Shown here in pieces: positions 14,036 to 14,266 of a stretch of 64,000 bases of DNA (position 1 is its first letter; every line of letters starts with the position of its first letter). A program made the position numbers and the translations under genes. Source of the stretch: Escherichia coli (GTDB taxonomy: Bacteria > Pseudomonadota > Gammaproteobacteria > Enterobacterales > Enterobacteriaceae). Below the pieces are notes generated by a model. That model was not told where the DNA came from. It searched no databases and saw nothing but the letters and a program-made list of their open reading frames with translations. Location: the NCBI RefSeq assembly GCF_044647545.1, contig NZ_CP172818.1; one strand, written 5' to 3'.

Positions 14036-14266
14036 GCTCGCTGTTTTGTCTCTCTTGCCGTTAAAAATTAAGCTGAATTTTATAGCATTTTTTTAACTGG
14101 CCTGTCAGGCAGTGGTGCGTTTTTCTACCGCTATTGAGGTAGGTCAATTTGCGCAGGCGGATTATTTTGTGGCAAACACGTGTTCTTTTTGATTTCGCGC
14201 AAAAAGATTCAGAATTTTACTGTTAGTTTCCTCGCGCAGTAATACCCCTGAAAAAAGAGGAAAGCA

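Follow-up and report, generated by a model that had tools for sequence, protein, structure and literature searches.

The 14-base motif TTGATTTCGCGCAA between yddG and fdnG of Escherichia coli is, at a probability that we put at about 0.93, the FNR operator of the promoter of fdnGHI (formate dehydrogenase-N). The FNR site of the fdnG promoter is already known, and the motif is this textbook element, re-identified. The window, by which we mean the whole 64,000-nucleotide stretch of DNA that was analysed, is E. coli chromosome, and the motif lies inside the 231-bp intergenic region that separates the two divergent genes. Of 5,426 complete E. coli genomes, 5,413 match the 601 bases around it, which take in the starts of both genes, at 95–100% identity. 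What is described below on sequence, geometry, conservation and identity in databases comes from the present analysis, while the dependence of fdnG on FNR and NarL and the published site positions are taken from the literature. The site and the adjoining gene starts are located as follows (window coordinates).

ATG 14035, minus strand: start of yddG.
14189..14202, no strand assigned: FNR site TTGATTTCGCGCAA of the fdnGHI promoter, centred at 14195.5 (-42.5), a class II activator position.
14257..14269, plus strand: Shine–Dalgarno sequence GAGGAA and fdnG ATG, conserved at all loci.
ATG 14267, plus strand: start of fdnG.

The equivalent of the intergenic region in E. coli K-12 MG1655 extends from 1547170 to 1547400 and differs from the window at three intergenic positions only (14154, 14179 and 14180). 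Since K-12 is identical at every element discussed here, results obtained with K-12 can be transferred to the window. Within fdnG, the open reading frames 14267–14854 and 14903–17314 share one common frame, and an in-frame TGA at 14852–14854 (translation ...ARV*HGPTV...) is the codon at which formate dehydrogenase-N is expected to carry selenocysteine.

The earlier note had read TTGAT-ttcg-CGCAA at 14189–14202, about 70 nt upstream of the fdnG ATG. Both sequence and coordinates are correct, and the centre of the site is 71.5 nt from the ATG. The motif matches the FNR consensus TTGAT-N4-ATCAA at eight of ten positions, with the TTG kept in both half-sites. For scoring, a symmetrised FNR weight matrix was built from 62 FNR sites located under ChIP-seq peaks (Table S6 of Myers et al., 2013). 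On this matrix TTGATTTCGCGCAA scores 10.4 and ranks sixth among the 63,987 positions of the window, and about 0.014 hits with a score like this are expected in the 231-bp intergenic region. The score is nevertheless lower than that of all 63 ChIP-bound sites in the same table (minimum 11.7; 62 of them are in the matrix), and the site falls under the cut-off of Myers et al. (2013) because of the C at spacer position 8. In the 64-kb window there are two occurrences of the relaxed pattern TTGAT-N6-CAA compared with 3.7 expected, and strong enrichment across the window is seen neither for this pattern nor for the NarL consensus. The case for the FNR site rests on where it lies, how well it is conserved and what has been published, and not on the motif being rare.

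The motif is identified directly by curated data. The 24-mer TCTTTTTGATTTCGCGCAAAAAGA, which is given as an FNR site of b1474 (fdnG) in the CoryneRegNet 4.0/RegulonDB set, occupies exactly window 14184–14207. The sites of this set are reprinted in additional data files 3 and 4 of the MotifAdjuster paper (PMC2718512; file 3 is the FNR set), in which b1474 has the two FNR entries TCTTTTTGATTTCGCGCAAAAAGA and CGCTATTGAGGTAGGTCAATTTGC and the NarL heptamers CACCACT, TACCGCT, TACCTCA and TAATCCG. Babujee et al. (2012; PMC3349551) give E. coli fdnG with FNR at -42.5 and with NarL heptamers at -77, -100, -109 and -124. The corresponding centres in the window are 14114, 14129, 14138 and 14161 for the heptamers and 14195.5 for the FNR site, and a start at 14238 is the sole position that fits the five published coordinates together with the curated site sequences.

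14221..14229, plus strand: extended -10 TGtTAGTTT of the fdnG promoter, ~90–100% conserved, without a -35 hexamer.
14238, plus strand: inferred fdnG transcription start (A), equivalent to K-12 U00096.3 1547372 and derived from secondary citations.

Relative to this inferred start the FNR site has class II geometry, with its centre at -42.5 and the extended -10 starting 21 nt after it. At class II promoters the FNR site lies at about -41.5 to -42.5, where the dimer overlaps the -35 region and is in direct contact with RNA polymerase; we infer that such contacts are also made at the fdnG promoter. A scan of 14000–14300 for consensus sigma-70 promoters and terminators returned no complete promoter and no terminator, and the absence of a complete sigma-70 promoter fits an activator-dependent promoter that does without a -35 hexamer. 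The description of these sites is credited to Li and Stewart in 1992 and to Darwin and colleagues in 1996, and Li and Stewart reportedly found anaerobic induction to be lost on mutating the FNR site. A full-text literature search with the literal 14-mers matched no paper on fdnG regulation. The earlier note had named a mapped start and footprints at other positions as the test that could overturn it; the published coordinates fit its FNR motif and refute the second part of its proposal, a NarL-like heptamer TACCCCT at 14243–14249, to which we return below.

To assess how well the site is conserved, the N-terminal 195 residues of FdnG were used as the query against species-representative genomes; this gave 80 Enterobacteriaceae loci at 88–100% identity, belonging to Escherichia, Citrobacter, Salmonella, Enterobacter, Klebsiella, Raoultella, Kluyvera, Leclercia, Kosakonia, Buttiauxella and other genera. 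Exactly one TTGAT-N4-N[GT]CAA is present within 400 bp upstream of the ATG at 80 of 80 fdnG loci, although the pattern fixes site positions 1–5 and 12–14, so that invariance at these positions is partly by construction. Positions 6, 7 and 10, which the pattern leaves free, are invariant (T, T and C, with C at position 10 in 81 of 81 sequences), and variation is confined to spacer positions 8–9 and to position 11 (G in 76, T in five). The spacing to the promoter is constrained as well: in 79 of 81 sequences the extended -10 is fixed 21 nt downstream of the site. In the 75 non-Escherichia loci, the 12 non-variable positions of the site have a mean identity to E. coli of 0.99, versus 0.46 elsewhere in the region. 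Within the species, 5405 of 5415 E. coli records have the same 32-mer around the site. Thus, the earlier assignment of FNR to this stretch upstream of fdnG is borne out by the curated b1474 site, by the published -42.5 position and by its presence in 80 of 80 promoters.

Two further features of fdnG control regions are worth noting. At 14161–14174, between the NarL heptamer at -77 and the FNR site, a conserved block has the sequence ATTATTTTGTGGCA in E. coli and either cTATTAAGGGGGC or cTATTTAGTAGCGG in other genera; none of the four catalogued heptamers accounts for it. In addition, the fdnG leaders of Citrobacter and Salmonella (loci L007–L012, L016–L020, L024, L029 and L030) carry ~50–57 extra nucleotides between the promoter and the Shine–Dalgarno sequence. 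This insert, which is not present in E. coli, folds as a long imperfect hairpin (-29.1 kcal/mol, z = -3.8 for L024:1417-1503), with compensatory changes at three pairs in an alignment of 13 sequences. The leaders of L022, L045 and L058 are longer still. In the window itself, a perfect 7-nt inverted repeat, TTTCCTC at 14227–14233 and GAGGAAA at 14257–14263, would pair the region just after the -10 with the Shine–Dalgarno sequence; as the TTTCCTC arm precedes the putative start at 14238, the mRNA would include it only if transcription began further upstream.

The FNR site is embedded in a longer symmetrical sequence.

14184..14207, no strand assigned: inverted repeat TCTTTTTG-N8-CAAAAAGA, consisting of the TTG/CAA of the FNR half-sites and 5-bp flanks.

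The larger inverted repeat described in the earlier note is present, but the arms of 7 nt that it gave are too short by one base each. The arms, TCTTTTTG at 14184–14191 and CAAAAAGA at 14200–14207, form a perfect 8-nt repeat with an 8-nt separation and share the centre of the motif at 14195.5. The repeat might be an element independent of FNR, such as an operator bound by a different dimeric regulator, a hairpin or a cruciform. Its perfect arms are concentric with the site, the chance of five further complementary pairs being concentric with the FNR site is about 0.001 (by a post hoc test), and the 32-mer noted above is unchanged in nearly all E. coli records. Against this, ~10% of shuffled intergenic regions yield an 8-nt inverted repeat whose loop does not exceed 40 nt, and the symmetry does not extend across genera: the left flank (14184–14188) has 4–40% identity outside Escherichia and is thus Escherichia-specific, and only the right flank AAA at 14203–14205 is kept (85–88% conserved outside Escherichia). 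Folded as single-stranded DNA, the repeat makes only a weak hairpin (-5.1 kcal/mol, z = -1.9, matched by 13 of 200 shuffles), and it lies upstream of the transcription start and hence outside the fdnG mRNA. No consensus of another regulator known to us could be recognised in the 24-bp repeat, which also counts against an element of its own. We consider an FNR-independent role to be extremely improbable, and read the larger inverted repeat as the FNR dyad with its flanks rather than a separate element, the conserved A residues occupying the -35 region.

FNR occupancy of the intergenic region in vivo is documented, and here a second FNR site comes into play.

14134..14147, no strand assigned: second and stronger FNR-consensus site TTGAGGTAGGTCAA, centred at -97.5 and overlapping the NarL -100 heptamer.

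This site is itself already known, as a catalogued FNR site of b1474. FNR peaks between yddG and fdnG were reported at 1545300 by ChIP-chip and at 1545309 (about window 14151) by ChIP-seq, with fdnG placed in the class activated by FNR in nitrate and by NarL (Myers et al., 2013). One could argue that TTGAGGTAGGTCAA is the functional FNR site and that TTGATTTCGCGCAA is a fortuitous half-match. With a score of 15.8 compared with 10.4 for TTGATTTCGCGCAA, TTGAGGTAGGTCAA is the top match to the FNR matrix in the 64-kb window; the matrix of Myers et al. (2013), for which TTGATTTCGCGCAA is below the threshold, instead assigns the ChIP-seq peak to TTGAGGTAGGTCAA; and the peak centre is 10.5 bp from TTGAGGTAGGTCAA and 44.5 bp from TTGATTTCGCGCAA. 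The distances carry little weight against the scatter of such peaks: the 62 site/peak pairs used for calibration have a median separation of 23.5 bp, and in 31% of them site and peak are at least 44.5 bp apart, so that a ChIP peak is too coarse to separate two FNR sites 55 bp apart. A literature search for higher-resolution FNR ChIP-exo data yielded nothing usable. Conservation and geometry speak against this alternative. TTGAGGTAGGTCAA is found only in Escherichia, with scores of at most 4.6 at the homologous offset in other genera, whereas the TTGATTTCGCGCAA site is present in all 80 species at a fixed spacing from the -10; -97.5 is not an activating class II position, unlike -42.5; and both sites are in the curated data, at odds with a fortuitous TTGATTTCGCGCAA. 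We therefore regard this alternative as very unlikely and retain TTGATTTCGCGCAA as the activating operator.

What the upstream site might do can be approached through its overlap with NarL. It is conceivable, at rather long odds, that this Escherichia-only site of higher affinity, lying on top of the NarL -100 heptamer, allows FNR to damp the promoter when nitrate is absent, with phospho-NarL displacing FNR when nitrate is supplied. If this were true, nitrate induction of fdnG would be partly an anti-repression switch and the response would be sharper. In the literature that we searched, neither competition between FNR and NarL at fdnG nor a regulatory role of TTGAGGTAGGTCAA was found to be addressed. 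A role for TTGAGGTAGGTCAA as a class II site of the divergent yddG receives no support from a reading of the minus strand, on which no -10-like hexamer was seen at the needed distance.

An extended -10-like sequence, TGCTATAAA, does occur on the minus strand at 14079–14087, about 45 nt upstream of the yddG ATG, and is probably the yddG promoter; relative to it (14087 to 14079) the position of TTGAGGTAGGTCAA would be about -68.5, which does not fit the usual class I phasing. The core of this sequence, TTATAGCA, has about 60–99% per-base conservation in the 75 non-Escherichia loci, and a perfect 8-nt inverted repeat, GTTAAAAA/TTTTTAAC, flanks it on both sides (14060–14067 and 14090–14097).

The nitrate response of fdnG is served by the catalogued heptamers, which are located as follows together with the heptamer proposed in the earlier note.

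14111..14117, minus strand: NarL heptamer CACCACT (-124), from the curated list and at its published position.
14126..14141, no strand assigned: NarL/NarP 7-2-7 inverted pair TACCGCT-at-TGAGGTA (-109/-100), curated as TACCGCT and TACCTCA.
14158..14164, minus strand: NarL heptamer TAATCCG (-77), from the curated list and at its published position.
14243..14249, plus strand: TACCCCT, the NarL-like heptamer of the earlier note, at +6 to +12 and judged to be a chance match.

The 7-2-7 pair at -109/-100 is the actual nitrate-response element. The literature names fdnG as a case of the 7-2-7 arrangement, both heptamers have at least five of seven matches at the same offset in 64 of the 75 non-Escherichia loci, and the 32-mer around the pair is identical in 5354 of 5415 E. 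coli records. The nitrate response thus arises from heptamers 80–130 bp further upstream than TACCCCT, and these had not been flagged in the earlier note.

Conversely, TACCCCT was given by that note with the right sequence and coordinates, but its proposed NarL role finds no support. As a functional NarL (or NarP) heptamer it would modulate fdnG from the leader, a reading that draws on its seven of seven matches to the NarL consensus TACYYMT and on its location inside a NarL-regulated control region. A match of this kind is frequent: TACYYMT occurs 48 times in 64 kb compared with 35 expected, about once per 1.3 kb of the window, and roughly 0.17 occurrences are expected in the 231-bp intergenic region. 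TACCCCT is not among the four curated fdnG heptamers, all of which lie at 14111–14164; its per-base identity across genera is 11–55%, with a change already in E. albertii; and a protein bound at +6 to +12, in the 5' UTR, would be expected to hinder transcription rather than to activate it. A function in the leader thus has very little to commend it, and we judge TACCCCT to be a chance match that is not part of the fdnG control region.

Together, these observations are consistent with the following mechanism. Under anaerobiosis the [4Fe-4S] form of the FNR dimer would bind TTGATTTCGCGCAA, centred at -42.5 and overlapping the place of a would-be -35 hexamer. FNR would then act as a class II activator that recruits RNA polymerase to a promoter with an extended -10 only (TGtTAGTTT), and fdnG transcription would begin at about 14238. 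Full expression in the presence of nitrate would also need phospho-NarL at -124, at the -109/-100 7-2-7 pair and at -77, and the leader TACCCCT would take no part. A 2025 review assigns redox control to FNR and nitrate control to NarX-NarL, both of which are needed for maximal fdnG expression. The right half-site of the operator is CGCAA instead of ATCAA, and this non-consensus sequence is itself conserved in ~80 species. The conserved deviation suggests that the site is kept sub-optimal and the promoter left dependent on NarL, and the breadth over which the deviation is conserved fits a promoter that is kept weak in this way.

The FNR site couples the synthesis of formate dehydrogenase-N to anaerobiosis, and the significance of the identification is mainly one of annotation. 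It also bears on the scanning of genomes, as a true FNR operator was located from the sequence alone by a reader without tools; by the same token, a single perfect NarL heptamer is no evidence, and the real heptamers upstream were missed. Two other positions in the window score well with the FNR matrix, TTGATCAACGTCAC at 9974–9987 (13.9) and TTGATCAATGTCAT at 12427–12440 (12.9). The former is listed as 'narZ (within narU)' and as not ChIP-bound (Myers et al., 2013), and its K-12 offset differs by 12 bp from that of fdnG, which indicates an indel between the two positions in the window strain.

The closest known system is the fdnG promoter of E. coli K-12, which is the same element: it is identical base for base at 14184–14207 and at all heptamers, and the three positions at which K-12 departs from the window strain (14154, 14179 and 14180) fall outside the elements. 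The FNR site of E. coli hcp, TTGATTTAGCGCAA, differs by one spacer base from that of fdnG and has the non-consensus right half GCGCAA in common with it; the hcp site is ChIP-bound with a PatSer score of 13.1 (Myers et al., 2013), although its promoter and context are different. A tandem arrangement of FNR sites is known from yfiD, where they are at -40.5 and -93.5 compared with -42.5 and -97.5 at fdnG, both pairs being about 53–55 bp apart (53 bp for the yfiD sites in Table S6 of Myers et al., 2013) and both having the downstream site at a class II position. At yfiD, FNR bound upstream suppresses activation by the promoter-proximal FNR. The upstream FNR site of fdnG differs from that of yfiD in its overlap with a NarL heptamer and in its restriction to Escherichia. 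The regulatory pattern of narG and fdnG has been described as essentially identical (2025 review). Like fdnG, narG combines a class II FNR site with upstream NarL heptamers, and its anaerobic activation by FNR is boosted by nitrate-activated NarL. The NarL sites of narG are about 200 bp upstream and require bending by IHF, whereas those of fdnG, at -124 to -77, lie directly upstream of FNR.
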